This document shows positions 47,901 through 62,705 of a stretch of 64,000 nucleotides of DNA, in pieces. Under the pieces are notes generated by a model, which saw only the letters and a list, made by a program, of their open reading frames with translations, was not told the DNA's origin and did not search any database. Origin of the DNA: an archaeon (lineage in GTDB: Archaea > EX4484-52 > WAPT01); assembly GCA_029258795.1 (NCBI GenBank), contig JAPDKB010000009.1:32001-96000 (forward strand), in the 5' to 3' direction. Every line of letters starts with the position of its first letter. The stretch's first letter is position 1. The position numbers and the translations under genes were made by a program.

Positions 47901-48447
47901 GAAGCATCTTGCCAAAATAGAAATAGTGGAGGCTCCAACGGAGGTTGAAATAGACGAGTTCTCAAACCTAACAATCCCTGTACTCCTAAAAAACATTGGC
48001 AGGAAAAAGCTGCACAACGTAACCATGAGGTTGGAAAACGTGGAGGAGTGTATTTCCTTCCAGAATTCAAGCATGCATGAACTGGATGTTAATGAAACGG
48101 TGAGTGCAACCCTTTTCATCACGGCAAAAGATGCTCCCAAGAAGTGCAGGGCTGTGCTTATAGTCTCTTCAAAGGAGGAAGCGTATGCCTTTGCACCGGT
48201 GCTGATAAAGGTTAATCCCAGACCACCACTCATGCCACTGCAGTGGAAGTGGGCACCCTATCTTGCTTTGGGATGGACTGCTATTTTTGTAACATATGGT
48301 GTGATAAGAAAAAGAAAGGCGAGAAGGGGTGAAAGACCAAGAACGATATGGCCACGAGTTTTCATTTATACACTTTTAATGGGAGAGATTTTGATAATTA
48401 TTTACGTGATGCTCTGGATTTTCGGTTATATCGCTTCGATGATTTAA
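44998..48447 (+). CDS. Large membrane-anchored Ig-like surface glycoprotein
   Basis: Signal peptide, many N-x-S/T sequons, EN.G motifs, Pro-rich hinge, two C-terminal TM helices. Confidence 0.85.
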   Translation: MQKAQNAISNILIIIFFLLFIPAIAQAMEIMNVTDYPDPLKANSTYITIKFNVTTDMNQTIDKALIFLTGPNLAFEDVLEPVSNKTYTVVVQTNQSGNLTNTTTNITEFTFTYWPEIEGTYWYRAFVNDTNGNSTYSSYYSFSALRYPLIHAVHITTPVNYTDDVLINITAYILPWDGETITNVTAEIISPNGTAFNLTMNFSHFDGTYYVYNASFHPDVYAIYVIDHWEREYRIRVFATDNTSSTSVSDFYTARAEDYVPEVVDVAAYPPAQEFLGVAFYIPTNNTLVINITTHDVTSATNLTSNINKSQLILTSSYLGLYEVYNLTLIDSNESYKVYNWSFNYTTPHILYEFRIYLEDTHGNKYLSQPYFFSDDIMTYRIVPLELNVSEACCLLPVVIVSPKVMYEGQTFTIYTYVENCGSVPVNVSGGVDIYKIRGKDWIHYETVAEQDEYAFYNLKPGEIAGTYYVRSSADYDEGNYSAVLDVNYYADVCFNRTNGTDFFEIKKFGGHGPMDLIVIREMPSSITQPKECETNPDACNTLQIRLFLYNRGAQNITNVTFTDTIQLNISLAHPNPEVGAPVKVVCNSTYAYNCSVKMKKYTPYDPTVAIIHVNLTQPILPRNYVMVSYNLTPASNLTVYNETYETKYTFIVQGTFTDSKGQTQIFLERMPYFNPPESYTLELVDEKSFDYNIFVNNNSQTNLTHLRSFYALKPATLEIVAKSISGDHEMNGNYFVNVSIPPIWKINGVVDYGDCDAITYQNYDLTHAQPYILCNSSKPLKNNDAITFSVNVTSFIDEMFLLPAEGTNFFDLKSPYIPGFFLVAMRPQNETPTPKPVPQPVPKPVPQPVPQPVPQPTPKPKIEIVLTPIKDEYTAYQDQLIPTYFSVENIGNATAYNISIEPELPSPEWRFSPTYVDVLRPGEKVNRTLMIAPGIDTPPGLYVIPVKAVVDGEVADLAYIKVHVLFGKHLAKIEIVEAPTEVEIDEFSNLTIPVLLKNIGRKKLHNVTMRLENVEECISFQNSSMHELDVNETVSATLFITAKDAPKKCRAVLIVSSKEEAYAFAPVLIKVNPRPPLMPLQWKWAPYLALGWTAIFVTYGVIRKRKARRGERPRTIWPRVFIYTLLMGEILIIIYVMLWIFGYIASMI
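47494..47580 (+). repeat. Imperfect 12-bp tandem repeat coding a P(K/Q)P(V/T) linker
   Basis: ccgaagccagtg cctcaaccagtt cctaagccagtg cctcaaccagta... Confidence 0.9.
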
Positions 48448-49093
48448 ACACAATGTTCTTTATTTTTTCAACATTTTTTATTAACCATACTGTAAGTTTC
48501 TCTTCGGTTTCATGTTCTTCGTACCACTCATCTTTATTTTCTTCCCATTCCAGAATGAAGAGATGCAGATCATGATAAAGGCTAATGCCAAGTATTAAGA
48601 GCATGAACCCTAGTATGCTTAGACCAGTGAGCTTTACCACCGGCATGAAATTCTGGTCCAACCCTACTGCTTGTAAGGCATACATGATATCTCCATTATT
48701 TTGAAAGAAGTACACAGAAGTATTGAGAAAAAACGACATGGCTAGAGCAACGGAGAGAAGCGCCGCATTAACCCTTCTTTTTCTCGTCAGCACGATATCA
48801 ATCACCATCAAGATGAAACCCAATACAAATGTAAGAATCACACCACCAAGATATACTGAAAGTTGCTGAACCTTCGTAAGTTCACAGACCTCATAAATTT
48901 TTCCATAAAAGCTTTTGAGTATTACGATATCCAGATGAGCAACATATTTACAGCCATAATATTTTAACATAAGGATGTGTCCCATTTCATGAATCACCGG
49001 TGCAATGATGTAAAATCCAAAAAGGAAAAGTAGGGCACCCACTACAATGATGCCGTACTCCTTCGGGTGAGAATTCAGAGTGTCATCCGTCAT
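48398..49093 (-). CDS. Membrane metallopeptidase-like protein (M50-type HExxH)
   Basis: IHEMGH within a TM segment, GG, NGD; several TM helices. Confidence 0.65.
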   Translation of the reverse strand: MTDDTLNSHPKEYGIIVVGALLFLFGFYIIAPVIHEMGHILMLKYYGCKYVAHLDIVILKSFYGKIYEVCELTKVQQLSVYLGGVILTFVLGFILMVIDIVLTRKRRVNAALLSVALAMSFFLNTSVYFFQNNGDIMYALQAVGLDQNFMPVVKLTGLSILGFMLLILGISLYHDLHLFILEWEENKDEWYEEHETEEKLTVWLIKNVEKIKNIVFKSSKRYNRKSRASRK

Positions 49094-49096
49094 TCA

Positions 49097-50881
49097 TCAC
49101 ACACCGAAAAATTCGTTTATTTTCTGGAAGAGACTCTTTTTATCTCGTTCTTTTCGTTCAACATTTTCACTCTTTTTTGACACATTATCTATCGTATTTT
49201 TCCCCTCCTTTACCTCCTCATTAGGTGGCTCTTCACTTGCGGTTTTTTGCTCTTCACTTCGAATCTCGCTATACTCATCTTCACTTTTTTCTTCAACCTT
49301 TTTCTCTTCTTTTTTTCCTTCTTCTTTAGCTACGCTTTTCTTGAGATCAGTGAAAATGAGATGTAATGTATCCTTACATCCTTCATACACTTCATGCACA
49401 TCATCATCACTTATCTTTCCCTGATATTCCTTCGCCATCATCTTCTCAAAGAAAGTGGCGAGCTTCATTTTAGTTTCAGAATCTATTCTTTCATCACTCT
49501 TTATTTTTTCTACAACCTGCGCGTGTGTGAGCTCCTCATTTATACCAAGGATATTCTCTACCTCTCTCTTTACTAACAGCACCATCTTAGGGATAGCATC
49601 CCTGCCTTCATTTTTAGCGTAAATCTCCTCAAGCTCTTTTATAGCTTGCCTGTATCTGTCATCTTTAACGCTCTTCTTTTTGGAGAATAATTTTTTGAGT
49701 ATGGATTCTTTCTCTTCAGTTTTCTCTTTCTTTCTATTGGCAATCTTTTCCTCGTGTTTGGAGAGTTTTTCGAGTTCATTTTCAGCGTCTTCAATCTCCT
49801 TCTTTATGCGATTAAGAAATGAGTTAAGCACAAGCTCTATCTCATCCACCACGAGATCATAGGTGGCAAGTTTATCTTCAATAATCTTTCTTTTTTTATT
49901 GTAAAGTTCCTCGTTAACCACGCCCTGATCATAAAGTTTCTGAAGAGCTTGCAGGTAAAGTTTAAGCTTTTCTTTTTCCTTTTTTACACCCTCTTCCTCC
50001 ATGAATTCATCAATGAGTTTACTCATACGTTCTTTAAGTTTGATTATGGTGAGTTTTTGAGCTTCTTTATGTAAGAGTAAATCTGCAAGTTCCAGCTTCT
50101 TTACCAGAAGCTCTCTGCTTTTCTTATAATCTTCATCCTCTATAAAACCAGCTTCCTTCAATTTTTCAAGCGCTTTTATTCCATCTTCTATTTCCTTTTT
50201 CAAAGCCACGTACTTTTTAGTATTATCTCCCGAGATGATAACTGCCTCCCTAAGTTTTTTCTCTTCGCTTTTTTGAGATTCGGATGTTTCGGGTTCACTG
50301 GTATCCGCATCAGCCTCATGGGTCTCCACATTTTCCCTGAATTCTTTTTTATCTTTCTCCTTTTCTTTGCTCTTTTCCAGTCCTTTTTTGATGGTGTTTT
50401 TGAGCTCTTTAATAGCTTTCAATTTCTCCTTCAGAGTATCAGAACTCTCTTCATCTTCTTTTTCTGACACCTCTTTCTTTCTTTGAGAGGGTGGTGCCGG
50501 CGCTACAGTTTTCTCGGCCTCATCGCTCTTTTCGGAAGGAGATTCGTTAAAGAAATGTGAATATTCTTTTCCAACGCTCGTCGATGTTCCCTGAATCTTT
50601 GGCTGGGCGCTTTTCACTTCCTCTGGCTCTGAATTGCGGTAGACGTCCCCTTTTTCTTCCTGAGATTCTTCTTGAGGTTTTGATGAGGGGGGAGAAGTAT
50701 TTTTACTTCCACCAAGTATGGATTTGAGCTGGGATATCATTTCCTGTGCTTGCTGGAGGGAATCATTTTCTTCAGTATCCTTTTGCGGTAGAATAGCGTT
50801 AATATTGTCGTCTGGCTGTTTTTTTTCACTAACTTTTACATTCTCTTGGATCACTTTCTCGGTAATGACACTGTTTCCCAT
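49097..50881 (-). CDS. Highly charged coiled-coil protein with two SHOCT-like motifs
   Basis: LEKLKEAGFIEDEDY and LQKLYDQGVVNEELY; disordered ends. Confidence 0.7.
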   Translation of the reverse strand: MGNSVITEKVIQENVKVSEKKQPDDNINAILPQKDTEENDSLQQAQEMISQLKSILGGSKNTSPPSSKPQEESQEEKGDVYRNSEPEEVKSAQPKIQGTSTSVGKEYSHFFNESPSEKSDEAEKTVAPAPPSQRKKEVSEKEDEESSDTLKEKLKAIKELKNTIKKGLEKSKEKEKDKKEFRENVETHEADADTSEPETSESQKSEEKKLREAVIISGDNTKKYVALKKEIEDGIKALEKLKEAGFIEDEDYKKSRELLVKKLELADLLLHKEAQKLTIIKLKERMSKLIDEFMEEEGVKKEKEKLKLYLQALQKLYDQGVVNEELYNKKRKIIEDKLATYDLVVDEIELVLNSFLNRIKKEIEDAENELEKLSKHEEKIANRKKEKTEEKESILKKLFSKKKSVKDDRYRQAIKELEEIYAKNEGRDAIPKMVLLVKREVENILGINEELTHAQVVEKIKSDERIDSETKMKLATFFEKMMAKEYQGKISDDDVHEVYEGCKDTLHLIFTDLKKSVAKEEGKKEEKKVEEKSEDEYSEIRSEEQKTASEEPPNEEVKEGKNTIDNVSKKSENVERKERDKKSLFQKINEFFGV

Positions 50882-50986
50882 GGTGGTGCACCACCCATCC
50901 GTCTAAACATTTATTAGGAGATTAAACCTATATATAGATATTTCGGTGTATTCGTTACGATAACACCCCGTTCAGGGTAGAAAAAT

Positions 50987-51991
50987 ATGCCCGTAGGTTC
51001 AGAAAAAAAGGAACTGGAACTCAGAATAGAGATGTGGAAGGAGAAGATAGAACAGTTCAAAGATGAGGTTAGAAAAACCTTTATAGGACAGGATGAAGTT
51101 TTGAAAACAGCGATTCTTGGGATACTGTCGAGAGGACATGTGTTGCTGGAAGGTGCGCCCGGACTGGCAAAAACATTGCTTGTGATGACTATAGCTAAAA
51201 CGGTTCGAAACGCCAAGTTCCAGCGTATTCAGTTCACTCCTGATCTGCTACCTAGCGATCTAACTGGCGTGACTGCTTACGACCCAAAGAGGAGTGAGTT
51301 TTATGTAATTAAGGGGCCTGTCTTTGCAAATTTCATTCTGGGAGATGAAATCAACAGAGCCCCGCCAAAAGTTCAGAGTGCTATGCTCTCGGTCATGCAG
51401 GAGAGACAGGTGGTTATAGGTAAGGAGATATATGATCTGGAGGAGCCATTTTTTGTTATGGCAACCCAGAATCCTATAGAACAGCAGGGTACTTACCCCT
51501 TACCGGAAGCACAGGTGGACAGATTTCTGTTTAAAGTGCTGGTGGACTATCCTAAAAAAGATGAGGAGTTAGCGATACTGGATAGGAACACGATGATAAG
51601 AGAGTTTGAGGAAGCAGGTGTGCAGGCTGTGCTCGATAAACAAGAGATTTTGGAGATGCAGGCTGACGTCAAGAGAGTTTATTCTTCCGAAGAGATCAAA
51701 AATTATATAGTGGATATAGTCCTGGCAACCAGAGACCCGGAAGCTTATGAGATAAAGAGTGGAAAGTATATTGCATGGGGAGCATCACCAAGAGCATCCA
51801 TAGCGCTTTACATAGCGTCAAAAGCTCACGCCTTTATAGAAGGAAGAACTTTTGTCATTCCGGAAGATGTCAGAGCTGTCGCACATGATGTGCTGAGGCA
51901 CAGGATTATATTGAATTATGAAGGTAAAGCGCTGGAAATAACTACTGATGAGATTATAGACGAAATTTTAAAAAAGGTGCCCGTACCCTGA
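50987..51991 (+). CDS. moxR: MoxR-family AAA+ ATPase
   Basis: EGAPGLAKT, RIQFTPDLLPSD, DEINRAPPKVQSA, ATQNPIEQ.GTYPLPEAQ.DRF. Confidence 0.96.
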   Translation: MPVGSEKKELELRIEMWKEKIEQFKDEVRKTFIGQDEVLKTAILGILSRGHVLLEGAPGLAKTLLVMTIAKTVRNAKFQRIQFTPDLLPSDLTGVTAYDPKRSEFYVIKGPVFANFILGDEINRAPPKVQSAMLSVMQERQVVIGKEIYDLEEPFFVMATQNPIEQQGTYPLPEAQVDRFLFKVLVDYPKKDEELAILDRNTMIREFEEAGVQAVLDKQEILEMQADVKRVYSSEEIKNYIVDIVLATRDPEAYEIKSGKYIAWGASPRASIALYIASKAHAFIEGRTFVIPEDVRAVAHDVLRHRIILNYEGKALEITTDEIIDEILKKVPVP

Positions 51992-54439
51992 TCAAAACCT
52001 TCTCTTTCCAAATGGAAGAACTCTGCTTCTCAGCTTCAATTTCTTCCTTTTCTTTACTGATGCTGCCAGAAAGATCATGAACACGAAGAAGATGGATAAG
52101 TAGAAATTCGTTTTTTCCGCACCTTCCAAAGCAAAGTACCCAGAAATACTATCTATTTCTGGAAGATCAAAGCTCCAACCTTCGTCAGCACTTTCTGCCT
52201 GTTGCTGCGCACTGCTATTGGTCTCTTCAACCTCCTCCTCCAGCTTCAGAGTGAATGAAACGGTATCCTTTGCTTCTTTACCGCTGAATGTGATCTTCGG
52301 GAAATAATATTTCTCACAACGGTCATTTATACAATCTTCTGCAGGTATGTTTATGTACATTTTAATAACTTTACTCTCTCCGGCTTTGATAACGTTTATG
52401 GATTTCGGAACAATTGCAAACCAGTCATAGTTCAGGTTTGTAACATCAACCACAATGTTCGTTACATCAACCTGCCCTGTGTTTTGGAGCGTTATCTCCA
52501 CTACCTTACTCTGTCCCGGGACAACACTTACAACATCTGGAGCAATGGATTTCAATTCGATTTTTCTCTCAACATGAATAACGAATGTCTTCTCAATAGA
52601 AATGTACGGGTTTTTTTCGGCTTTGGTCACAATTTCGTAACTGCCGTCTTCTTGAGGCGCGCTTATAACTGCAGAGAACTTCCCACCCAAATCGGTGGTT
52701 GTGGTTGTTGTCGCTTCCATCCCCTTTATGCTCACTGTAATTCGAACATCTTTGACGGGGTCTCCTTTGCTGTTTTTGACCACTCCGCTCACTTCCACAT
52801 TCTCTCCAGCATAATAATCTTTCTGTACCTCATCAAGCTCTATTATGAGGGGCTCGCGTTCTCCAACCACGAAAGCCCCGAGCTTGGTCGTATTTACCTT
52901 CACCACATTAGACACTATATTGACTTCCGAGGAAACAGCTTCCCACTCACCCACACACTCCCTCCTCCCAAAATTCCAGTCAGTACATCTATAAACCTCC
53001 AATCCTTTTTCGTTCCTAACGGAAGCATCGTTGTAAGGTATTGTGAGATATGCTGTTTTGAAGAGGGGTGCGAACTCCAGAACCACGAGTTTTACAGCTT
53101 TGAACCCCTCTATCTGTATGTTTTTTATGAATCTATCATACCTTATTCCATTTACCACGGGTTCGTTAATCTCAACCTGTTTTATAACTGCGGTTACTTC
53201 CGGAAACCGTATCTCGAAATCGTATGTGCCCGAAGGTAATGAGGTTTGGTATCTTCCCAGATTATCGGTTCGCATCAAAATTTCCTCCGTGTTTTCACCT
53301 CTTATCTTTATGATTCCATTCACAACATTACCTGCAGGATCTATCAGCTGACCCGACACAGGTATGACGAAATAAACCGGAACCTTGGATGAGACTGCAG
53401 GGGTGTAACCATCATATACGACTTTGATATAGAGTTCGTAGGGTTCGTTGGAAGATTCTAATTTGGGTATCTGCACAAGCAACTTGTATCTCTGTGTGTT
53501 GGCATCATACCAAACATTTAGGATTGGAATTCTCTTATCAATTCCATTACCCTCAATATAAGCTTCGAAATTATCCACAGTAAGATCATTTGCGGGCACG
53601 CCCTTTTCCAGAACTTGAATGGTTATGTTTTTGTTGGTGGTGTCTGCCAGCCTTATCTCGGTGGATGGGTTGGGATCTATCAGCACAGCGACCAGAGCAT
53701 CATTTATTCTGACAGCATCATAAGCAACATCAATTGCAGTTCTTTTCGACCCGTCCATGGTCAGTGATCCTCTCACCTCCAGGTCATAAATGCCCGGTGG
53801 CGTGTTCTGGTTGAAAGAAACTACTTGAATGCTCCAGATTTTTGTTCCGGGGTCAAATATGATGCTATCTACATTCAATGGGATTTTGGTATTACCTTCC
53901 TTAATGGACACGGAAAACTCCGGAGCGAGACCCGTGTCTACATACTGGTTATTGATTTTAAATTTCAATTTTACGGTGAACGATGATCCTGCATATACAT
54001 CATATAGGCTACCGGTTGCGGGTTCAACTATCTCAATCGTTGGCTTTTTTACAACAAAAGATAGAGTTTCAGTATCTTTTCCAGAGGAATCCTCGCAAGT
54101 TACGGTTGCCTCATAATTTCCGTAGAAAGTTGCAGTGTAATGCGCTTCATACATCCCACTCTCATCCTCTCCAAAATTCAGCGGTGCTTCCTTACCATCT
54201 GGAAGTGTAACAACTCCAAAGATGGAAGATGAGTTACTACTCTCATTCAAACTGCAATTGAGATGAAACGCGATTTCAACAGCATTTTGGTCGTAATTCA
54301 TCCATATGGGGGATGAGGGTTCCATGTAAAGCTCTACTATCTTAGCAGCATTAGTGCAGGAAGGCACTATAACAATGCCCATCACCAACAGGTACAGAAT
54401 TAATATTCTATTTACTGCTTGCATTCGCGAAACACCCAC
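51992..54439 (-). CDS. Secreted multi-Ig-domain protein with a C-terminal TM anchor
   Basis: Signal peptide, beta-rich repeats, QNTG motif, TM followed by a basic tail. Confidence 0.8.
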   Translation of the reverse strand: MGVSRMQAVNRILILYLLVMGIVIVPSCTNAAKIVELYMEPSSPIWMNYDQNAVEIAFHLNCSLNESSNSSSIFGVVTLPDGKEAPLNFGEDESGMYEAHYTATFYGNYEATVTCEDSSGKDTETLSFVVKKPTIEIVEPATGSLYDVYAGSSFTVKLKFKINNQYVDTGLAPEFSVSIKEGNTKIPLNVDSIIFDPGTKIWSIQVVSFNQNTPPGIYDLEVRGSLTMDGSKRTAIDVAYDAVRINDALVAVLIDPNPSTEIRLADTTNKNITIQVLEKGVPANDLTVDNFEAYIEGNGIDKRIPILNVWYDANTQRYKLLVQIPKLESSNEPYELYIKVVYDGYTPAVSSKVPVYFVIPVSGQLIDPAGNVVNGIIKIRGENTEEILMRTDNLGRYQTSLPSGTYDFEIRFPEVTAVIKQVEINEPVVNGIRYDRFIKNIQIEGFKAVKLVVLEFAPLFKTAYLTIPYNDASVRNEKGLEVYRCTDWNFGRRECVGEWEAVSSEVNIVSNVVKVNTTKLGAFVVGEREPLIIELDEVQKDYYAGENVEVSGVVKNSKGDPVKDVRITVSIKGMEATTTTTTDLGGKFSAVISAPQEDGSYEIVTKAEKNPYISIEKTFVIHVERKIELKSIAPDVVSVVPGQSKVVEITLQNTGQVDVTNIVVDVTNLNYDWFAIVPKSINVIKAGESKVIKMYINIPAEDCINDRCEKYYFPKITFSGKEAKDTVSFTLKLEEEVEETNSSAQQQAESADEGWSFDLPEIDSISGYFALEGAEKTNFYLSIFFVFMIFLAASVKKRKKLKLRSRVLPFGKRRF

Positions 54440-54445: not shown

Positions 54446-55195
54446 TCAAATCAAGCCCAGCAATTTTCTTATTCCCAAAAATCTGGGCGGTTCATAAACC
54501 TTTCCTATCAGCTTGGCTGCAAGCTTTTTCATGGCTATGGATGAAGAGGTGTAAGGATCCATCGCAATCACAGGAGTGCGCTGAAAGACACTCTTTCTGA
54601 CCTTTTCATCTTCGGGGATGACCTCTATGATGGGAGCTTCACAAATCACCTCAATCTCTTCCGGCTTTAGTTCGTGTTCATATCCGCTGTATCTGTTAAC
54701 AACAACACCCAAAATCCTCTTTTTTTGCTCTTCAGCCATCTTTATTACCTTTGCAGCGTTAGCCACAGCCGGAATTTCAGGAGTGGTCACGGCAAGCACC
54801 TCATCACACGCATTGAGCACCTCTCTACCAACAGTGTCCAATCCAGGTGGAGCGTCCACAATCACAATGTTGTAGGGTAGGGACTTCAATGTTTGCCTTA
54901 AATTCTTTGGTTTGACCGTCACGTCGTTTAGGGCTATGGAGCTGGGTATGAAGTTTATTCCTGTGGGATGTGTATGGATCGCGTGCTCAACCTCACTATC
55001 CCCTCTGATTATGCTTTGAAGGGTGTTGGGGAAAGAATAGTGCCCCAAATATATTCCCAAATTGGACGCGGTCATATCTGCATCCACAACCACAACCTTC
55101 TCCCCAAACTGATGGAGAGCAAGAGCAAGGTTAGCAGCGCAAACGGTTTTACCAACTCCTCCTTTTCCAGAAGCAACACATATTACTCGAGGCAA
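54446..55195 (-). CDS. minD: MinD/ParA-family ATPase
   Basis: SGKGGVGKT, DAD, DAPPG, C-terminal amphipathic FLGIRKLLGL. Confidence 0.92.
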   Translation of the reverse strand: MPRVICVASGKGGVGKTVCAANLALALHQFGEKVVVVDADMTASNLGIYLGHYSFPNTLQSIIRGDSEVEHAIHTHPTGINFIPSSIALNDVTVKPKNLRQTLKSLPYNIVIVDAPPGLDTVGREVLNACDEVLAVTTPEIPAVANAAKVIKMAEEQKKRILGVVVNRYSGYEHELKPEEIEVICEAPIIEVIPEDEKVRKSVFQRTPVIAMDPYTSSSIAMKKLAAKLIGKVYEPPRFLGIRKLLGLI

Positions 55196-55258: not shown

Positions 55259-56155
55259 CTACATCTCACACTTTTTTGATTTGGGTTGAGTTCTTTTCTT
55301 TGATTTTGGGATGTTTTTGTAATCAGAGCCAAGATGCTTCGATAATATGAAGCCAAACACCATACCCACAACCATCCCGATCAAGAGCACGATTGGTAAA
55401 CTCGGACGTTTCTCTTCCTCCCTGATTTGAGGTAAAACGTCGAACCTGTAAACCTTACCGCCTGAGCTGTCTATTAACACCATAGGAATCTTTTTGGTGG
55501 TTAAAACTCCGTAGTCCCAATTAATCTGAAGTTTCAAGACACCATCTTCCAACTCCAGCTCCCGATAACGAGCAGCATAAACCTTGTCTCCCGGAGGTAT
55601 GGTGAGCGGTAGCACCAGAACATCCTTCAGATTGCTACTGGTTGTGTTCACCAGTGTAATCTCAACGTTTATTGTTGAAGGGTCATTTTCATAAATCCAC
55701 GAATTCGAAGCCACACGTATTACTGACATATTGGTGTAGTTGGAGCCATTGATTTGAAGGGTTGTTTTATTCAACCTTTTTATTTCATCGCAAAAGTATA
55801 GCGTGGGGATGAGCGTGAAATTTCCAGACAGATTACCGAAAAACCAGTAATTTCTGAAGGTGGCTATTCCTCCCGGGGCAACGCGCTCCACATTGCTCCA
55901 CGAGGTGTAAATTATTGACCCATTTGCATCTTCAACATCAATTCTCATGTACGTTTTGCATCCCGCAGAGCCCGTATTTTCCCATACAGACACAACCTCA
56001 ACCACGCTCATATTCTCCAGAATTGAAACATTGCTGTAGGCAAGGGTACCATCAACATCTCCTGCTATGTTAACAAATATGGGAACTGATGATGCAAAAT
56101 TGATGCAGAATGCTATACTGAAACAAACCAGCAAGATCGGAAGCAATCTTTTCAT
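55259..56155 (-). CDS. Secreted Ig-like protein with a C-terminal TM
   Basis: Signal peptide, WENTGS, sequons, TM plus basic tail. Confidence 0.75.
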   Translation of the reverse strand: MKRLLPILLVCFSIAFCINFASSVPIFVNIAGDVDGTLAYSNVSILENMSVVEVVSVWENTGSAGCKTYMRIDVEDANGSIIYTSWSNVERVAPGGIATFRNYWFFGNLSGNFTLIPTLYFCDEIKRLNKTTLQINGSNYTNMSVIRVASNSWIYENDPSTINVEITLVNTTSSNLKDVLVLPLTIPPGDKVYAARYRELELEDGVLKLQINWDYGVLTTKKIPMVLIDSSGGKVYRFDVLPQIREEEKRPSLPIVLLIGMVVGMVFGFILSKHLGSDYKNIPKSKKRTQPKSKKCEM

Positions 56156-56179
56156 ATTGTTTAGAAGGTCAGGAAATCT

Positions 56180-56737
56180 TTATATGTCCTTTCTCCAAGC
56201 TTCAAACTTATACTCACACAATTCGTTCAGGAATTTTTCCGAGACGCTATAGCGAGGAATACAAATCAGAACATGAGCCATCCCCGTATAATTCCCCACT
56301 TCATTTCCAACAAACTTTATTTTAACATTCATGGCTTCTCCCGGAGAAAGGACGATGTTGTTTCGCTCTATTTCAACTTTTTCACTTACGTTCCCTTCTA
56401 CCACTATCTGAATTTTGGTCTTCATTAGATTTGACGGAGCTTTTAGCTCTATTTCTCGGGTAACGTTTCCCCCCAACGGAACGATACCGAACGCAAGCTC
56501 ATCGGGATCAACGCTCACACCCAGCTTGGTAATGTTTGTCTGACTCATGTTGATTACAAAAGCGCTCGCATTAAAACTCACATAGCGAATCATGACTCCG
56601 TGTTTGAAAAGGAAAACGATGAACACAAAAAATATGGAGAATGCTACAACAACACTCCAGCTGAATATTCTGGTTATCAAACCATAATTTATTTCCTTTC
56701 TGAGTTTTGTCCTTTTTCTCTTCATGAGAACGCTCAC
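56180..56737 (-). CDS. N-terminally anchored Ig-like protein
   Basis: TM followed by VDPDELAFGIVPLG and GNYTG. Confidence 0.7.
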   Translation of the reverse strand: MSVLMKRKRTKLRKEINYGLITRIFSWSVVVAFSIFFVFIVFLFKHGVMIRYVSFNASAFVINMSQTNITKLGVSVDPDELAFGIVPLGGNVTREIELKAPSNLMKTKIQIVVEGNVSEKVEIERNNIVLSPGEAMNVKIKFVGNEVGNYTGMAHVLICIPRYSVSEKFLNELCEYKFEAWRKDI

Positions 56738-56738
56738 C

Positions 56739-57722
56739 TTACATTTTCCAGTAGACGTAAAGGCCTATCAGCGCGAGGATGATCATCAGGAACCACCATG
56801 GTATTTTTCTTTTTGGACTGGCCCGTTCCTGCACTTTTGCGACTATCTCTGCCGGAATCTTTATCACATCCTCTTTTGTGACTTGACCTGTGATGTAATC
56901 CACCTTCGCTTCCACCCTCACCTTTTCGGAAGGTATCTCTTCAGAGCTGGTCCAGAAACCGTGAAGAACCACAGTATCTCCCGGAGCTATACGGGTAGCA
57001 GAACCGGCCAGAAGATCGATAACATTGCCTTCATTGTCCTTTATCTGCAGCTCCGAGAGTCTGGCGGTTATGGTGGTTGTTCCGGTGTTTTTGAAGAGCA
57101 CATCTATTCTCACGCGGTTTTTGGCTTCCCTTTCAGCTTCAAAATCAATTATGGTTCCTTTTCTTTCAGCCACACCCGGAACTCTAAAAACGAAAATCAA
57201 CCTTGTGATTCCCACAGTAGCTACCCCCGCCCCACCACTTGTCTCTACCCTGAGCTTCGGGATGATGTTGATCGCTCCAGCATGATATCCGGGCTCAGCG
57301 TCCTTCGGAACTTTTAGAATAAATGTGGCCTTTCTATTGTACTTTATAGAAGTGCCGTCAGGGAGCGTTATCACCTTCACATTGTTTGGATCGAGGATGT
57401 AGGGGTTTTGGGGAAATTCGATCCAGCTTGAGATGTCTTCTTCAGAGACTTCTGCAGGAATCATAACATATGGATCTCTCTTTTCTTTAAACAAAACATC
57501 TCGGTGCACTGGAACGTAAGATAAGGTTACGGGAAGCGGCTCTCGGGTGTTGGAAATTATGTAAAAACTAACCGCCACCTCCTTTCCTCGGGGAACATCT
57601 CCGAGGTCTATCACTCCGGGAGACACACCTATACCTAAGGAATATGAGGTTGTGCTCAATAAAATCATCATTGACAGTGAAATGAACCAAAAACTTACTG
57701 GTTTTTTATCAATATTCATCAT
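56739..57722 (-). CDS. Two-domain secreted PapD/DUF916-like protein with a C-terminal TM
   Basis: GIGVSPGVIDLG, VPKDAEPGYHAG.I, FKNTGTT, TM; the fold assignment is pattern-based. Confidence 0.65.
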   Translation of the reverse strand: MMNIDKKPVSFWFISLSMMILLSTTSYSLGIGVSPGVIDLGDVPRGKEVAVSFYIISNTREPLPVTLSYVPVHRDVLFKEKRDPYVMIPAEVSEEDISSWIEFPQNPYILDPNNVKVITLPDGTSIKYNRKATFILKVPKDAEPGYHAGAINIIPKLRVETSGGAGVATVGITRLIFVFRVPGVAERKGTIIDFEAEREAKNRVRIDVLFKNTGTTTITARLSELQIKDNEGNVIDLLAGSATRIAPGDTVVLHGFWTSSEEIPSEKVRVEAKVDYITGQVTKEDVIKIPAEIVAKVQERASPKRKIPWWFLMIILALIGLYVYWKM

Positions 57723-57819
57723 GTTAAAACATCACCCACTTTCACCTTTAAATTAATATCGACATCCCCACATCTCAAATTATTTTTTCTCTCGTTATAT
57801 CGAACTATACACTCAATAA

Positions 57820-57836
57820 GAGAAAAATTTATATAC
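57820..57836 (+). promoter_or_regulatory. BRE/TATA promoter for subunit pair 1
   Basis: gagaaaaa-tttatata. Confidence 0.6.
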
Positions 57837-57882
57837 TCCCTCGTATCGGTATTATCTTCACACAGTATCTGAGGGGCTATTT

Positions 57883-57904
57883 TGCTCCTCAGGAAGACGG
57901 GGGA
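57883..57904 (+). repeat. Left arm of a perfect 22-bp inverted repeat
   Basis: tgctcctcaggaagacggggga is the reverse complement of 62542-62563. Confidence 0.95.
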
Positions 57905-57909
57905 TTAGG

Positions 57910-58860
57910 ATGTTGCCCAGTAAGGGGGATAAAACACAGAGTTATTTAGAGCCAGCGACTTTGGGATTTGTAGTGTTACTTCTATTGCTATCTATAATGA
58001 AATTGCCCTCTTTATCGTTTGGTTATGAAGCCAACGATACCATAACCATAAACGTCACCGTGGCTCAGGTGGCGATGGTCACCATCGATCCGAGCTCTCT
58101 GAGCTGGAGCAATGTTGAACCCGGCAGTGTGGGCGACGAGGATTATGAGGATCATGGTTATGATGGTATATGGATAGAGAACATAGGTAGTGTAAACATA
58201 ACTTATGTATGGTTCAACGCTTCTTACCCTCCATCCTCACCTTTTGGAACTGGTGATCCTCAAGCATATGATGCTGGAAACTTCGTGGTGCTCACGCCAA
58301 ATGAATCAACAACACCATATCATTTCGTTAACAGGGTGGAGTACAACGATCTTTACAGGACAGGCACCATGTATGTATTTCCAGCAGGAACACCATCCTT
58401 CTTCGGAAGGTTCAGAAACGCAAGTTACGAATACTTTATTGAGCTTGATGCCACAAATTATGGAAACTGCAGCAGTGGTAGTCTGTACATTTCAGATACT
58501 CCGAAAACAAAGGAAAATAGCGGAGATATATACCTCTCAGATAACACCCCAGTCACCGTCAATCCGGTGAGTTATAATGGAAAGACATGGGGTGTTGCAG
58601 AGGTTGATATAGACACCCAAAAGTACTGTGTGATTTTTGATTCGGGGTGTAATTACGCTATTTTCAACAGATGGAACGCTGATTTGCCGGGAGTCAACTC
58701 CACCTATTGTCCAAATGTAAGTGGTTATATGAAAGACGATTCCACACAACCCATCGTTCCCGGAGATGTGTTCAAGGTGAATATAAGGGTGTATGTCCCT
58801 TATGGTGTCCCTTACGGTACTGTTAAGACTGGTACACTCACGGTCTTTGTTAAAGCGTGA
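57910..58860 (+). CDS. Secreted putative filament subunit, type A1
   Basis: Signal peptide; NDTITINV, IWIENIGSVNIT, PFGTG, NRVEY, VPYGVP; no TM anchor. Confidence 0.8.
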   Translation: MLPSKGDKTQSYLEPATLGFVVLLLLLSIMKLPSLSFGYEANDTITINVTVAQVAMVTIDPSSLSWSNVEPGSVGDEDYEDHGYDGIWIENIGSVNITYVWFNASYPPSSPFGTGDPQAYDAGNFVVLTPNESTTPYHFVNRVEYNDLYRTGTMYVFPAGTPSFFGRFRNASYEYFIELDATNYGNCSSGSLYISDTPKTKENSGDIYLSDNTPVTVNPVSYNGKTWGVAEVDIDTQKYCVIFDSGCNYAIFNRWNADLPGVNSTYCPNVSGYMKDDSTQPIVPGDVFKVNIRVYVPYGVPYGTVKTGTLTVFVKA

Positions 58861-58925
58861 TGAGTGGGTAACGTGTGTATGATGTTCATCCCAATCAATC
58901 ATATTCAAGACGGAGGTGATACACC

Positions 58926-59957
58926 ATGAAAGGTGAAATAAAGTTTGGTATTGGCGTTGTGATGGCAGCGATTGCACTAATTGCGGCGCTTTTTGTAAGC
59001 TTTAATCCAAATGTTGAAGCAGCATACAATGCTGAGAACAGCAGCTGGGACAACTCAACGGTGACTGTAAAGATTGGACCGATAACTATGATTGATGTCA
59101 CACCAGAGAAGATGGACTTCGGAACAGCGATTCCGGGAGAAATAATCTCGGTGTATAACGTTACGGATACCACCAATGATCTGGTGAATCTCACAGCATT
59201 CCAGATAGAGAACATAGGCTCCACCAACATCAGCAAGATATGGCTCAACGTCACTAAGCCACGTGAGAATCCATTCGGTACTGGTAATGCCAGCAAGTAC
59301 AACCCGGGAAACTGGCTGGCAGTTAGCATACGATTCTATCCGGAGGGTTTGACAGTGCCCACTCAGGACATGAGCTACATTCACAGAGTGGAGTTCAACA
59401 CATCACAGGAGATAGTGTATCTGAAGAAGCCTCAGAATACCGTTTCATACGGAAGGTTCAGGGTCGGAAGCAATGAGTACTTCTGGGCGCTGACATCATC
59501 GGATGGCTCGTGCCCAACAACCACAGGTTCAACTCTGACATTCATCATAGGAAACTACAGCGAGCCGCACACACAGAATGACACCGGTGACATAGATTTA
59601 ACAGATGGAGATGAGAGAATAATAACCCTAACGTTGAACACCGATGGATGGTTTGTTCCTGCAACAGGGAGCAGCGCGTTAGATTTCAATGGTGCCAATG
59701 AAAACTATATGGTCATAGTAAACGGAAGCTGTAATGAAGTGCACTTCGTTGCATGGGACAGGGACTTTGCGGAATCCGTTGCGAAGGCAGACGTGTCCAA
59801 ACTACCAAACAACGCATCAGTGTTTGATGAAACAATAGCAGGTCAGCCTCTCTATCCAGGTCAGAGCATAGCAATGAACGTACAGCTCAGAATTCCATAT
59901 GGAGTCCCAACGGCAAATTACATGGGCTACATGACGGTTGTGGCGTCAAGAGTTTAA
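58926..59957 (+). CDS. Secreted putative filament subunit, type B1
   Basis: VTVKIGPIT, TP..MDFGTA.PG, QIENIGST, PFGTG, RVEFN, IPYGVP. Confidence 0.8.
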   Translation: MKGEIKFGIGVVMAAIALIAALFVSFNPNVEAAYNAENSSWDNSTVTVKIGPITMIDVTPEKMDFGTAIPGEIISVYNVTDTTNDLVNLTAFQIENIGSTNISKIWLNVTKPRENPFGTGNASKYNPGNWLAVSIRFYPEGLTVPTQDMSYIHRVEFNTSQEIVYLKKPQNTVSYGRFRVGSNEYFWALTSSDGSCPTTTGSTLTFIIGNYSEPHTQNDTGDIDLTDGDERIITLTLNTDGWFVPATGSSALDFNGANENYMVIVNGSCNEVHFVAWDRDFAESVAKADVSKLPNNASVFDETIAGQPLYPGQSIAMNVQLRIPYGVPTANYMGYMTVVASRV

Positions 59958-59967
59958 GCTCGACATG

Positions 59968-60010
59968 AACGCCCTTTAATTTTTTAGGGCGTTTTACACC
60001 TTTTCTTATT
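59968..60010 (+). terminator. Hairpin plus T-rich terminator after pair 1
   Basis: aacgccct-N10-agggcgtt followed by T tracts. Confidence 0.65.
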
Positions 60011-60083
60011 CCTAACTCTTTTTCTTGTTCTTAACAAATATACAAATCCGGTCATCTCACGATTACTCATTCTTAAGTAATCA

Positions 60084-60099
60084 CAAAATCTTTATATAC
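60084..60099 (+). promoter_or_regulatory. BRE/TATA promoter for subunit pair 2
   Basis: caaaatc-tttatata, preceded by the palindrome GATTACT-N8-AGTAATC (60061-60082). Confidence 0.55.
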
Positions 60100-60208
60100 A
60101 CCTTTTGCGTTTAAACATCATTAAATCGCAATATCTCGATATAGTGGTGTGTGTACATTTAAAAGTATCTCAGTATCGAGCTCAAAAGTTATCGAGAGGA
60201 GGAGGTTT

Positions 60209-61264
60209 ATGGAAAAGGGGTTGGCTTTCGGGAGCATTTTGATTTTAATTGTGGTATTGGGGGTCGTTTCCGTTTTGCTGATTGCCCCACCTATCCATTC
60301 TTTATCTTATTCCGCTAACGATACCATAACCATCAACGTAAGTGTAAGGCAGGTAACGCTGGTTGACATAAATCCATCGAATCTAACTTGGACTGATGTA
60401 CCTCCAGGCGGTGTGGGAGATAGCAGCAAAGAAGCCCACAACTACAGTGGCATCTGGATTGAGAATATAGGCAGTGTGAATATAACAAAAGCTTGGCTTG
60501 CAAACACTTATTGGAATGATCCAACAAATAAGGGTCCTTTCGGAACCGGTAATGCTTCCCTTTACGACCCCGCAAACATGGTTGTCGTATCTTTGAATGA
60601 GACGGATCCAAATCAACCCTTCCAGTTTATTAACAGGGTTGAATACCCCGATAGCAACAGGTACAGTGGAGACTTTTACATAAGGTTTGATTCAGGTGCT
60701 AAGTGGGGAAGATTCAGAAACACATCTTACGAGTACTTCTGGGAGGTGGTTCCCGGAGCTTCTGGAAACTGTTCGAATGGAACTCTTGTCATCTCAACGG
60801 TACCGCACACTCAGCAACAAACAGGCACAGTCGATCTTACAACCTCTAATCCAGATTGTGTGAATCAACCAACCGGTTCAACCACTGCACCATGTAGGAA
60901 GGTAACATTAACCACTCTCAGCAGTTACAACGGAGACAATTCCACACTACCCTCCGGTGTTTATGGTGTTGCCGAAATTTCTATAGGTCAGGGAGATCTC
61001 CCCAGATACTGCTTTGCAATAAAGGATGATTGCAACCTAGCAGTATTTGTTAAATGGAACGCCGATTTCGTCGAAGCTGCTAGAAAGGCGGGTGCGTGCA
61101 CACTCAATCCATACCTTTTCGATGGCTCTTCCAATCCGGATCAGGTGCTGGTTCCGGGAGAAATATTCCATGCTTTCGTGCGCGTTTACGTACCATACGG
61201 TGTACCATACGGCACGATAGGCAGCGCAACTCCTAGACAGGTTAGAGTGTACGTGAGCGCGTAA
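60209..61264 (+). CDS. Secreted putative filament subunit, type A2
   Basis: Closest to A1: ANDTITINV, GIWIENIGSVNIT, GRFRN.SYEY, WNAD, VYVPYGVPYGT; GGAGG RBS. Confidence 0.8.
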   Translation: MEKGLAFGSILILIVVLGVVSVLLIAPPIHSLSYSANDTITINVSVRQVTLVDINPSNLTWTDVPPGGVGDSSKEAHNYSGIWIENIGSVNITKAWLANTYWNDPTNKGPFGTGNASLYDPANMVVVSLNETDPNQPFQFINRVEYPDSNRYSGDFYIRFDSGAKWGRFRNTSYEYFWEVVPGASGNCSNGTLVISTVPHTQQQTGTVDLTTSNPDCVNQPTGSTTAPCRKVTLTTLSSYNGDNSTLPSGVYGVAEISIGQGDLPRYCFAIKDDCNLAVFVKWNADFVEAARKAGACTLNPYLFDGSSNPDQVLVPGEIFHAFVRVYVPYGVPYGTIGSATPRQVRVYVSA

Positions 61265-61277
61265 TTAAGGTGAGGAG

Positions 61278-61505
61278 ATGACGAGCGGAACAAAAACGGT
61301 TGAAGAAGCTGTTATGGAAGTGCTTCGGAAAGCGAAAATGCCCATGACCACTTATCAAATTGCGAAGAAGGTTGGAGCGTCTTGGGGGTCTGTTAATACT
61401 GCGTGTTATAAGCTAAAGGATGCGGGACTGGTGGAGAAGGATGTTATAACTCCCCGTGTGGGAAGCGGGAAAAAAGTTGTGTGGTGGGCGAAGAAAAAAT
61501 CATGA
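61278..61505 (+). CDS. Small winged-helix DNA-binding protein
   Basis: PMTTYQIAKKVGASWGSV...LKDAGLV, wing ending VWW. Confidence 0.85.
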   Translation: MTSGTKTVEEAVMEVLRKAKMPMTTYQIAKKVGASWGSVNTACYKLKDAGLVEKDVITPRVGSGKKVVWWAKKKS

Positions 61506-61527
61506 TCATCTCAAAAGGTGAGGATGT

Positions 61528-62454
61528 ATGAGTAGGAAGGGATTTAAGCTGGTGAGTGCCGCAACCTTGATGATTGCGGTGATTGCTGCGGCGTTCCTGT
61601 TGACGGGCACCAACAACCCTGCCGAAGCAGCGACAGTCAGCAATGCAAGTGTTACAGTAAACATAGGAGCCATAACGATAGTAGATATAACTCCACAGGC
61701 AATGAATTTTGGAACAGCAAATCCGGGAAGCAGGTTGTACCAGTACACAGACCCCGACAACGGAATAACTCTGAGCCAGATCCAGATAGAGAATCTGGGT
61801 TCAACAACAATAAGTTCAATACACTTCAATGTAACGCAGCCATCAAGCGACCCGTTTGGTAGCGGGGCTGCATCTAACTACAACACCGGAAACTGGCTGT
61901 TACTGAAGCACACTACAGACACATACTACGCATATGTGGACAGGGTGGAGTGGAACTCTTCATATCCTATAGTTTACCTTGAACCAGGACTGCCAACTAA
62001 CTCCAAAACCTACGGAAAGATCAGGATGGGTAACAGAGAGTACTTCTGGACCATAAACGGAAGCTCAGACTACTGTAACACAACAGGAAACACACTGGTA
62101 ATAGGACAGACACCTCACAACGAGAGCCAGACCGGTACGATAAACCTCGAGAGCGGTGACATAGTGGTCGGAAGCATTCAGGGAGTTGATGCGAACTGGG
62201 GTATCGTTGACGGCATAACAATTGAAGGTGTCAGCTACTGTGTTGCAGTATCTGCAGATTGTAGCACTCTGAGGATTTACAAGTGGAACAAGGACGCTCC
62301 CGGAGCAGGATCGTGTTCCAGTTACAACGATTTCGCAACCAGCATAGCCCCGGGTGCTTCAGTGGTGGCCGACGTAGCATTATATGTGCCATACGGAGTT
62401 CCACAGGGTACTCCAACCACAGGTTACCTAACCGTGATAGCAGAAGCTGCGTAA
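61528..62454 (+). CDS. Secreted putative filament subunit, type B2
   Basis: Closest to B1: VTVNIGAIT, TP.AMNFGTANPG, QIENLGST, YN.GNWL, VPYGVP. Confidence 0.8.
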   Translation: MSRKGFKLVSAATLMIAVIAAAFLLTGTNNPAEAATVSNASVTVNIGAITIVDITPQAMNFGTANPGSRLYQYTDPDNGITLSQIQIENLGSTTISSIHFNVTQPSSDPFGSGAASNYNTGNWLLLKHTTDTYYAYVDRVEWNSSYPIVYLEPGLPTNSKTYGKIRMGNREYFWTINGSSDYCNTTGNTLVIGQTPHNESQTGTINLESGDIVVGSIQGVDANWGIVDGITIEGVSYCVAVSADCSTLRIYKWNKDAPGAGSCSSYNDFATSIAPGASVVADVALYVPYGVPQGTPTTGYLTVIAEAA

Positions 62455-62487: not shown

Positions 62488-62520
62488 AGGCCATTTTATT
62501 TTTTGGCCTTCCTTTCCTTT
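62488..62520 (+). terminator. Hairpin plus pyrimidine tract after pair 2
   Basis: aggcca-N10-tggcct followed by tcctttccttt. Confidence 0.55.
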
Positions 62521-62541
62521 AACTTTCACCACACATCATGG

Positions 62542-62563
62542 TCCCCCGTCTTCCTGAGGAGCA
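62542..62563 (-). repeat. Right arm of the perfect 22-bp inverted repeat
   Basis: tcccccgtcttcctgaggagca. Confidence 0.95.
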
Positions 62564-62705
62564 GGGCAGCTTTTCAAAGCTGCTCTGCTTCTCTTTAATT
62601 TTTCTGATTCTGATATAATGAGAGGTTAAGATGGCGTTATAATAATATTTAAATATTTTAACTCGACTCATTCTTAATCAAGACAGCCTCTGTGGTCGTT
62701 GCGAA

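Follow-up and report, generated by a model that had tools for sequence, protein, structure and literature searches.

The window analysed here is a stretch of 64,000 nucleotides (nt) from a tiny vent archaeon of DPANN type (lineage EX4484-52; WAPT01) (assembly GCA_029258795.1, contig JAPDKB010000009.1, positions 32,001 to 96,000), and all coordinates below are those of the window. Near its right-hand end lies a cassette of four related genes for secreted proteins, A1, B1, A2 and B2, with a divergently transcribed gene, p327, for a membrane-anchored protein beside it. We consider these proteins as candidate subunits of a surface fibre and as a candidate for its assembly factor. The genes are as follows:

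57910..58860, plus strand: A1, a clade A subunit of 316 amino acids (aa) with 9 N-glycosylation sequons; with a Sec signal peptide, the mature part starting near residue 39
58926..59957, plus strand: B1, a clade B subunit of the plain-pair type, 343 aa, 12 sequons; signal peptide ending at VEA-A
60209..61264, plus strand: A2, a clade A subunit of 351 aa when read from ATG 60209; the frame is open from GTG 60149
61278..61505, plus strand: a 75-aa open reading frame (ORF) between A2 and B2, with weak matches to winged helix-turn-helix (wHTH) proteins
61528..62454, plus strand: B2, a clade B subunit of the wHTH-pair type, 308 aa (from ORF list, alignment and tree)
56739..57722, minus strand: p327, with signal peptide, two immunoglobulin (Ig)-like domains, C-terminal transmembrane helix and a WxLIP-like fold; a candidate chaperone or anchor (from model and fold searches)

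Four paralogous subunits in one cassette

The four subunits can be aligned from end to end. A1 and A2 are 46% identical, A and B proteins share 31–33%, and 48 columns are invariant, a likeness far beyond chance. The invariant columns comprise the motifs P61..L64.W66..P71G72, I89E90N91.G93S94 and P111F112G113.G115..Y120..N124, followed by R142V143E144, G166..R169..E174Y175F176, the pair C187/C247 and P297YGVP301. An earlier note on this DNA, made without database searches, had described four paralogues with ordered motifs, and every motif that it listed falls within these columns. It had also placed a wHTH gene between A2 and B2; the 75-aa ORF found there gives weak wHTH matches (TrmB at E 4e-4, under the Pfam cut-off). 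The start of A2 is likely ATG 60209, since the ribosome-binding site GAGGAGGAGG precedes it and this start agrees with the homologues. The genome (1.17 Mb in 23 contigs, 96% complete) contains just these four copies of the family.

A new archaeal family with two subunit clades

A profile search of 5.8 billion proteins returned 295 members of the subunit family, and an exhaustive hidden Markov model search covering 1.84 billion representatives brought up 342 clusters (50% identity, E ≤ 1e-3), of which 306 reach E ≤ 1e-10. The family is compact, with no tail into known families, because nearly all clusters measure 290–390 aa. All source names that were given are hypothetical proteins of Aenigmarchaeota, Nanohaloarchaeota, Micrarchaeota, Altiarchaeota or "archaeon", hence of DPANN type, and a language-model atlas placed the family in a cluster of 539 members that is 99% archaeal. 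Within the phylum of the window it is present in 33 of 42 genomes, all from one order. Pfam searches with the four subunits and with 121 members produced sub-threshold scatter only (MYCBPAP 8, CBM64 6, NEW3 3), the TasA/camelysin domain Peptidase_M73 was found in 0 of the 121 at E ≤ 1, and a sequence search of the PDB with the subunit profile gave 0 matches at E ≤ 10. One language-model neighbour, at 0.78, ties the subunits to WxL proteins and was rated by the tool as a lead only. In the literature on the DPANN donor strand, Aenigmarchaeota pili, archaeal DUF916 and WxLIP, searched in partly available texts and outside the supplements, we found no description of the family.

We examined 20 fetched loci from related genomes for gene pairs and built an unrooted tree of 41 members (IQ-TREE in quick mode, with SH-aLRT support). 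The loci contained 13 tandem pairs, 5 of them plain and 8 with a gene in between, which was a wHTH gene in 8/8 of these type-2 pairs. The A gene came first and the B gene second in all 15 pairs, that is, in 13/13 elsewhere and in the 2 of the window. Clade A of the tree (15 rows, SH-aLRT 95) consists entirely of first genes and clade B (16 rows, SH-aLRT 96) entirely of second genes, one of its rows being on a cut contig. A third clade (7 rows, support 100) holds families with a single undifferentiated copy or a recent tandem duplicate; two rows from genome G005 and one long branch (G006) were not placed. Division into A and B subtypes in a fixed order, as the earlier note had it, is thus borne out. 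The note had further regarded the two pairs as alternative versions of one filament. There are indeed two pairs, but they are not simply alternatives: B proteins of plain pairs and of wHTH pairs form separate supported clades, evidently old, and the pairs represent two conserved modules with their own accessory genes.

The A genes of the same genome tend to be mutual nearest relatives (support 81 in the window, 97 in locus L042). Since the B1-type and B2-type genes form old separate clades, this suggests gene conversion or repeated duplication affecting A only.

Secretion signals and glycosylation sites

Each of the four subunits has one hydrophobic stretch, at the N-terminus, and none elsewhere, and a C-terminal hydrophobic 19-mer was found in 0 of 121 family members. 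Homologues start with signals of the classical n-h-c layout that carry small residues at positions −3/−1 (VGFA, AFA and GSA, for example); there is no twin arginine. These signals support export via Sec and signal peptidase I, not as type IV pilins, in agreement with the secreted, unanchored, non-type-IV proteins of the earlier note. The conserved strand begins within about 5–10 residues of the signal, and there is no retained packed helix of about 20 residues as in type IV pilins and archaellins. In the A1 model described below, the helix at 16–29 has a predicted local distance difference test (pLDDT) score of about 50–60, and the linker between this helix and the fold is itself of low confidence. 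Genes for a prepilin peptidase and for three T2SSE ATPases are present in the genome, but outside this locus.

The KG or RKG near the subunit N-termini had raised the possibility of a class III (type IV pilin) signal, with its short basic leader and G/A at −1, which we rejected upon inspection of 130 homologue N-termini. The KG is part of a basic n-region, since the homologues carry ordinary Sec/signal peptidase I signals.

Sequons occur in the subunit family at 3.28 per 100 aa, compared with 1.37 in shuffled sequences (2.4-fold enrichment). Together with the AglB/STT3 gene encoded in the genome, this backs the suggestion of the earlier note that the subunits are glycosylated. The p327 family is sequon-poor, with 0.43 per 100 aa and none at all in 21 of 64 members.

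Predicted structure of the subunits

The AlphaFold2 model of A1, computed from a 121-row alignment, reached a pLDDT of 91.3 and a predicted template modelling score of 0.83; from residue 41 onward it contains beta structure only. When it is aligned to solved structures, an Ig-like (ASH/MSP/PapD-like) sandwich falls at residues of about 53–160 and 287–316, with 88 residues aligned at a root-mean-square deviation (rmsd) of 2.0 and Z 6.4 in the best case. A second beta domain is inserted at residues of about 160–255 and holds the Cys pair, C187 being present in 121/121 members and C247 in 120/121. The P(Y/F)G motif lies at a median of 21 residues from the C-terminus in 233 of 250 members, and the last strand reaches the very C-terminus.

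In front of the sandwich lies a segment with a strict alternation. Positions 45, 47, 49 and 51 are hydrophobic in 96–100% of the 121 members, and positions 44, 46, 48 and 50 in 2–16%, which matches the amphipathic N-terminal strand recognized in the earlier note. DSSP assigns no strand pairing to residues 30–56 of the A1 monomer.

In a second-look fold search, about 13 of the top 20 matches by manual count were subunits of donor-strand fibres or pili, all of them weak: TasA (Z 5.6), TLP-1a/b (5.4–5.5), CanA (5.2/5.1), FimA (5.0), AbpA (4.8), CS20 (4.1), the Saci_0406 thread subunit (4.1) and Caf1 (3.9–4.1, four entries). Subunits of chaperone-free fibres were the commonest of these weak matches, at Z 4.1–5.6 over 113–143 residues (rmsd 3.4–4.3 for TasA, CanA, AbpA and the thread), below the guide value for a meaningful match. 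The comparison with TasA, AbpA, CanA and threads proposed in the earlier note thus does bring up such folds, yet only in the range of common noise. The alignments to fibre subunits begin at A1 residues 53–56 and at target residues 42 (TasA), 19 (CanA) and 15 (Caf1), just after the N-terminal segment of each target, which we take to be its donor strand.

A membrane-anchored neighbour with a WxLIP-like fold

The gene p327 is separated from A1 by 187 nt. The earlier note had been silent on it and on its operon, which turned out to be the most informative part of the locus. The p327 model (pLDDT 91.3) shows two Ig-like domains and a helix at 308–325. All 66 matches of the p327 family are archaeal hypothetical proteins, and 64 of 64 members have the C-terminal transmembrane helix (a hydrophobic 19-mer within the last 45 residues). 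The top Foldseek match was WxLIP of Enterococcus faecium (9i25/9i1y; E 3e-9, prob 1.00, TM 0.43–0.53), and WxLIP also led the VIA comparison (Z 12.8, 228 of 267 residues aligned). Next came RbmA and, at E of about 1e-6 in Foldseek, the chaperone-usher chaperones YadV, CsuC, CupB2 and CfaA. Language-model neighbours at 0.93 included clusters with PF06030 and PF11797 in 98% of members, sharing 211–214 of 256 features. A Pfam scan of p327 from the window found no match to PF06030 or PF11797, and no PapD_N match was listed. We therefore consider p327 as WxLIP-like in its predicted fold and not as a detectable family member by sequence, because the Pfam matches within its family stay far below the cut-offs.

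An arginine at the domain junction (R186) is conserved in 63 of 64 members. It recalls the cleft Arg/Lys of chaperone-usher chaperones, which we take as a lead only.

WxLIP belongs to the DUF916/DUF3324 family, as does ElrE, which the Elr preprint describes as the membrane-anchored pilus chaperone of enterococci (10.64898/2026.10.17.759780). A C-terminal transmembrane helix is reported there for 96.7% of WxL chaperones (10.64898/2026.10.17.759780).

Conserved neighbourhood of the subunit genes

Beyond p327, the following genes to the left of the cassette recur next to subunit genes in other genomes:

56180..56737, minus strand: p185, with N-terminal transmembrane anchor and one ASH/PapD-like Ig domain (Cep192_D4 at E 7e-6, below cut-off)
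55259..56155, minus strand: p298, with signal peptide, strand-like mature N-terminus IFVNIA, C-terminal transmembrane helix and basic tail; fast evolving (from sequence and synteny)
54446..55195, minus strand: MinD/ParA-type P-loop ATPase, syntenic with the module (from Pfam and synteny)
51992..54439, minus strand: p815, a large signal-peptide protein with CarboxypepD_reg/Big/NEW3 domains and C-terminal transmembrane helix (from Pfam; syntenic even in single-copy lineages)
44998..51991: p1149 (plus), p231 (minus, HEMGH in a transmembrane helix), p594 (minus, K/E-rich) and a MoxR AAA+ ATPase (plus), found beside the A-wHTH-B pair elsewhere

The divergent series p327-p185-p298-MinD-p815 adjoins the plain A-B pair in the window and in the related loci L028 and L031; L043 and L027 show part of it. 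For the A-wHTH-B pair, the genes nearby are MoxR, p594, p231 and p1149 in L029, L030, L039 and L041 (the locus L040 is cut). In the window, both accessory sets are joined in one island at 44998–62454. In single-copy lineages, a stretch of about 10 kb encodes p327, p185, a p298-like protein, p815, 2–3 further signal-peptide proteins and the subunit, all on the same strand, an arrangement that is complete in L038 and partial in L037, L032 and L034. A homologue search with p298 gave 2 matches only, and its family was traced by synteny instead. The strand-like mature N-terminus of p298 may be nothing more than the strand with which an Ig domain begins.

Genes for p327 and subunits are adjacent in L028, L031 and L043 and lie within about 10 kb of each other in genomes G004, G014, G016 and G032; in G003 they are 44 kb apart or on separate contigs. 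Among 41 genomes, 28 contained both families, 5 neither, 4 the subunit only and 4 p327 only, in a sample whose relatives are not independent and whose genomes are mostly incomplete. When near-full-length p327 alone was counted, the numbers were 26, 5, 6 and 4, and in the 10 best genomes they were 6, 3, 1 and 0. The 5 genomes with neither family include both genomes of the same genus. In summary, p327, p185, p298, the MinD-like ATPase and p815 are syntenic and co-occur with the subunits.

The MinD/ParA-type ATPase is cytoplasmic and is kept in an operon of otherwise extracytoplasmic proteins (L027, L028, L031, L043). It recalls the ParA-like placement factors of other surface organelles. Another unusual neighbour is p231 (48398–49093, minus strand), a small polytopic membrane protein with HEMGH in its first hydrophobic segment and no Pfam match, which resembles a zinc protease embedded in the membrane. 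Beside the A-wHTH-B pair in L029, L030 and L040 it is found in synteny with MoxR, p594 and p1149. Just upstream of that pair in L029 (7380–8357, genome G035) is a gene for a 325-aa protein with signal peptide and C-terminal transmembrane helix, preceded by one for a 2441-aa protein. This p327-like layout went undetected by the p327 profile, and the protein may be a second, diverged partner for module 2.

Comparison with known fibre systems

The closest parallel is the elr/WxL locus of Enterococcus, which builds a pilus by donor-strand exchange, with ElrD as pilin and ElrE (DUF916/DUF3324) as membrane-anchored chaperone (10.64898/2026.10.17.759780). In both systems the subunits are secreted via Sec, start with an amphipathic strand and finish, right at the C-terminus, with a strand of the beta-sandwich, and the adjacent gene encodes a protein of two Ig-like domains with a C-terminal transmembrane helix, here p327 with WxLIP as best structural match. 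In both, the gene for the chaperone, or for its candidate p327, lies within 10 kb of the subunit genes (187 nt between p327 and A1), there is no outer membrane, without which no usher would be expected, and there are several subunit types per locus and several loci per genome. The archaeal subunits differ in their length of about 300 aa, in the inserted second beta domain and in the absence of the WxL domain, and p327 reaches the WxLIP Pfam models only below threshold. Moreover, the archaeal host has neither peptidoglycan nor LPxTG protein, its subunits are rich in N-glycosylation sites, and MinD, MoxR and wHTH genes are linked to the locus. The preprint reports that the WxL pilus system is restricted to Bacillota and that the strand-donation pili of archaea form without a chaperone (10.64898/2026.10.17.759780).

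A second parallel is the Pam pilus of bacteria of the Candidate Phyla Radiation (CPR), with the pilins PamA/PamB, the membrane-anchored PapD-like chaperones PamC/PamD and the anchor PamR (PMC13278184). These are likewise ultrasmall, host-dependent organisms without outer membrane; their operons have two major pilin paralogues, chaperone-like proteins with C-terminal transmembrane helices and a proposed membrane-anchored terminator or anchor with an N-terminal strand, with which p298 may be compared (PMC13278184). In contrast to the A1 model, the Pam pilin is a nine-strand sandwich with a truncated Ig domain attached via a linker strand, and the host is a bacterium (PMC13278184).

The fibres formed by TasA (B. 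subtilis), AbpA (Pyrobaculum), CanA (Pyrodictium), Saci_0406 (Sulfolobus) and TLP-1 are made of secreted beta-sandwich subunits, with an N-terminal donor strand. Several of these fibres are archaeal and glycosylated. TLP-1 fibrils are described as donor-strand tubules of unknown origin. Unlike A and B proteins, these subunits are single domains of 150–240 aa, and there is no sequence match between them and the A/B family. These fibres are also described as lacking a dedicated fold-completing chaperone (10.64898/2026.10.17.759780), whereas a chaperone-like gene is kept in the locus studied here.

Chaperone-usher pili (FimA/FimC, Caf1/Caf1M, Csu) share Ig-like subunits with an N-terminal extension, and their two-domain chaperones YadV, CsuC, CupB2 and CfaA are matched by p327 at the fold level. 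They differ from the present system, which has no periplasm and a membrane-tethered chaperone-like protein without PapD_N match. No usher would be expected without an outer membrane, and no search aimed at ushers was made.

Proposed assembly and competing explanations

Building on the family itself, its export signals, sequon richness and lack of an anchor, the A/B clades and their order, the predicted folds, the p327 fold match, synteny and co-occurrence, we propose that A1, B1, A2 and B2 form a Sec-dependent, N-glycosylated, strand-complemented fibre of non-type-IV kind, assembled or anchored at the membrane by p327, with p298, p185 and p815 as base or minor parts. We rate the chances of this reading as about even. 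Polymerisation, strand insertion, chaperone action, copolymerisation of A and B and a role in attachment are what we infer from fold, architecture and gene linkage. The mode of working is put forward as a hypothesis on these grounds because by sequence the proteins belong to none of the WxL/WxLIP, TasA, chaperone-usher or type IV systems.

Each subunit would be exported by Sec and, judging from the N-termini, cleaved by signal peptidase I. It would then be heavily N-glycosylated by AglB, as the sequon excess and the presence of the gene suggest, and would fold into the Ig-like core and the inserted, disulfide-bearing beta domain that are predicted with high confidence. The unpaired amphipathic N-terminal strand would dock on the next subunit, by donor-strand complementation or beta-sheet augmentation, to give a linear polymer. 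Assembly would take place at the cytoplasmic membrane on the WxLIP-like p327, tethered by its C-terminal helix, which might hold or prime subunits as ElrE does for the enterococcal WxL pilus and as is proposed for PamC/PamD of the CPR Pam pilus. The membrane-anchored Ig proteins p298 and p185, plus p815, would supply the base, the anchor or minor parts. One fibre probably contains both A and B, as their constant gene order and the age of their separate clades suggest. As judged from its gene content, the genome holds two such modules, the second with an internal wHTH regulator, and the fibre likely is used for attachment to a host cell or surface.

A prediction of the complex of p327 ectodomain, B1 and A1, with A1 scored, gave values of 0.64, 0.68 and 0.55, which the tool judged to be neither support nor counter-evidence. 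In the controls, the values were 0.24 and 0.02 with the partner replaced and 0.68 with B1 replaced, and the prediction serves neither for nor against binding.

Several observations weigh against the proposed fibre. With the A1 model, Foldseek found no match at E ≤ 1e-3, and the best Z values of the subunits (6.4–6.7) fall under the tool's noise guide of 7–8. The Ig-like core aligns with complete ASH/MSP domains (the 88 residues at rmsd 2.0 mentioned above), so that an open groove is unsupported and the core may be a complete fold. The N-terminal segment may be packed in cis, because its pLDDT is 90–97 in the monomer. It is conserved to the same degree as the rest of the protein (2.41 versus 2.39 bits, rank 133 of 262 windows along the alignment) and contains a sequon in 113 of 121 members, and a glycan at this place could hinder insertion. 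The WxL domain (PF13731) was found in 0 of 121 subunit-family members at E ≤ 1. PF06030 (WxLIP_PGBD/DUF916) and PF11797 (WxLIP_HBD/DUF3324) appeared below threshold in 2 of 64 p327-family members each (best E 0.037 and 0.13), and a PDB sequence search with the p327 profile gave only spurious short matches to ETV6 fusion constructs. A WxLIP-like fold is no proof of chaperone action either, because all that was originally reported of WxLIP is that it binds WxL proteins (PMC10599100). Finally, 8 of the 41 genomes are discordant for subunit and p327.

One competing explanation, which we consider unlikely, is that A and B are non-polymerising surface proteins that bind glycans or a host and are held non-covalently by p327. 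This would parallel the view of WxL proteins before their pilus was found, and it draws on the resemblance of p327 to WxLIP, a protein reported to bind WxL proteins (PMC10599100). The inserted beta domain with its almost invariant Cys pair could be a binding module, and lectins, carbohydrate-binding modules and N-terminal domains of glycosidases are among the weak fold matches. However, such binders would not account for the conserved pairing of A with B, for the strictly alternating hydrophobic residues at the mature N-terminus or for the many fibre subunits, more than expected, among the weak matches, and the same type of locus in enterococci proved to build a pilus (10.64898/2026.10.17.759780).

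It seems similarly unlikely that A and B form a two-component, glycosylated, two-dimensional surface layer or sheath anchored by p327, p298, p185 and p815. The model for such an anchored lattice is Sulfolobales, where the stalk protein SlaB holds SlaA. Secreted, unanchored, sequon-rich, Ig-like subunits would suit a lattice, as would the several membrane-anchored Ig proteins encoded beside them, the strong TATA and ribosome-binding signals, the seemingly complete Ig core and the NEW3/CARDB/DUF11 domains in neighbours, which are common in archaeal envelope proteins. A main wall protein would not be expected to be missing from close relatives, but neither the subunits nor p327 occur in the two genomes of the same genus, which are 90% and 94% complete, or in G007 (91%). 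The unpaired amphipathic N-terminal strand and the WxLIP/chaperone-like partner are better suited to a linear polymer, and the genome encodes far larger envelope candidates, for example the protein of more than 3323 aa that begins at 62706.

That A and B are secreted enzymes such as glycoside hydrolases or lyases is highly improbable: the top second-look match was the N-terminal domain of a beta-N-acetylgalactosaminidase (8k2g, Z 6.7, 118 residues) and alginate lyases were among the weak Foldseek rows, but the enzyme matches cover only non-catalytic beta-sandwich domains within the noise range, no Pfam, NCBI-style or PDB sequence match was found, and the invariant positions, occupied chiefly by Gly, Pro, Cys and aromatic residues, look structural.

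Returning to the proposed fibre, its most far-reaching version would make it the first chaperone-assisted, donor-strand-assembled pilus of archaea, with p327 polymerising two-domain glycoprotein pilins into A/B heteropolymers by an usher-free pathway with a membrane-tethered chaperone, common to Bacillota, CPR bacteria and DPANN archaea, and would see in it a main attachment organelle of ultrasmall symbionts. We regard this version as rather doubtful and advance it tentatively. DPANN archaea live attached to host cells by contact proteins that are largely unknown. For these the locus provides a concrete candidate that is widely conserved and consists of a subunit family new to science (342 clusters, none seen with an annotation) together with membrane partners that are conserved as a set. 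If the proposed mechanism holds, strand exchange guided by a chaperone at the cytoplasmic membrane, which was reported for enterococci in 2026 and has been proposed for CPR bacteria, would extend to Archaea. The locus is best filed as a real, conserved, unannotated surface system, in which the theme of the membrane-chaperone donor-strand pilus would reach a further domain of life, with subunits that form a family of their own.

Expression signals and an inverted repeat around the cassette

Each pair is preceded by a TATA-box-like word, and the cassette is flanked by the arms of an inverted repeat:

57828..57835, plus strand: TTTATATA, 75 nt upstream of the A1 start (word search)
60091..60098, plus strand: TTTATATA, 111 nt upstream of the A2 start (word search)
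57883..57913: left arm of the inverted repeat, 31 nt, spanning the A1 5' untranslated region, ribosome-binding site and ATG (inverted-repeat analysis)
62533..62563: right arm, about 80 nt past the B2 stop, overlapping the foot of a 17-pair hairpin at 62556–62593 (inverted-repeat analysis)

The word TTTATATA occurs 5 times in the 64 kb, compared with 1.9 expected, and 5 occurrences were attained in 4 of 100 shuffles. By eye, we found G+C hairpins with T-runs 3' of B1 (59968–59995) and of B2 (62488–62520). Both are missing from the terminator scan because it was restricted to loops of 3–8 nt; near B2, the scan listed the 17-pair hairpin, also with a T-run. The earlier note had assigned a TATA box and a terminator to each pair, and these words and by-eye hairpins are in line with it.

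The 31-nt inverted repeat flanks the entire four-gene cassette. Its arms are 90% complementary with a perfect core of 21 nt, which has no further copy in the genome, and pairing of the two arms as RNA would yield −70.3 kcal/mol, versus −28.4 ± 4.5 in shuffles. The repeat could be the relic of an event that joined the modules, an inversion site, or a 3'-end sequence directed against the ribosome-binding site that lets module 2 silence module 1. A strand-changing joint between the arms was not seen in 4 runs (3 studies, one a possible source), searched as contigs, which are prone to drop rare forms; all they showed was skips from one paralogous part to another, in other strains. In the most far-reaching version of the proposal, the embedded wHTH protein and the 3'-end sequence complementary to the A1 ribosome-binding site may let the two modules regulate each other. 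An Rfam scan of the window gave no match.

A comparable inverted repeat was sought in L031 and L042 and was not found there. In the related genome of L028, a 21-nt inverted repeat (95%; 9038–9058 and 10057–10077) pairs the ribosome-binding region of the B gene with sequence just past its stop. The arm behind the stop again lies within a terminator-like hairpin, and the duplex is predicted at −31.0 versus −18.8 ± 3.4 for shuffles. Complementarity between 3' ends and ribosome-binding sites may thus be a recurring theme across loci.

Other genes of the region

The ORF that follows B2 (62706–64000, on to the end of the contig) stays open for at least 3323 codons and encodes a signal peptide, many Ig-like repeats and very many sequons. 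It contains an internal duplicated segment of about 300 aa and has DUF11/CARDB matches. Its product is a giant surface protein such as DPANN genomes commonly encode. In run X2, a related strain diverges from about 62600 onward.

At 42679–44886, a ThiF-family E1-like gene (430 aa) is convergent with a gene for a TtuA-like 2-thiouridine synthetase (PP-loop, LIM, zinc-ribbon). The two are an ordinary tRNA-thiolation pair, unrelated to the fibre locus.

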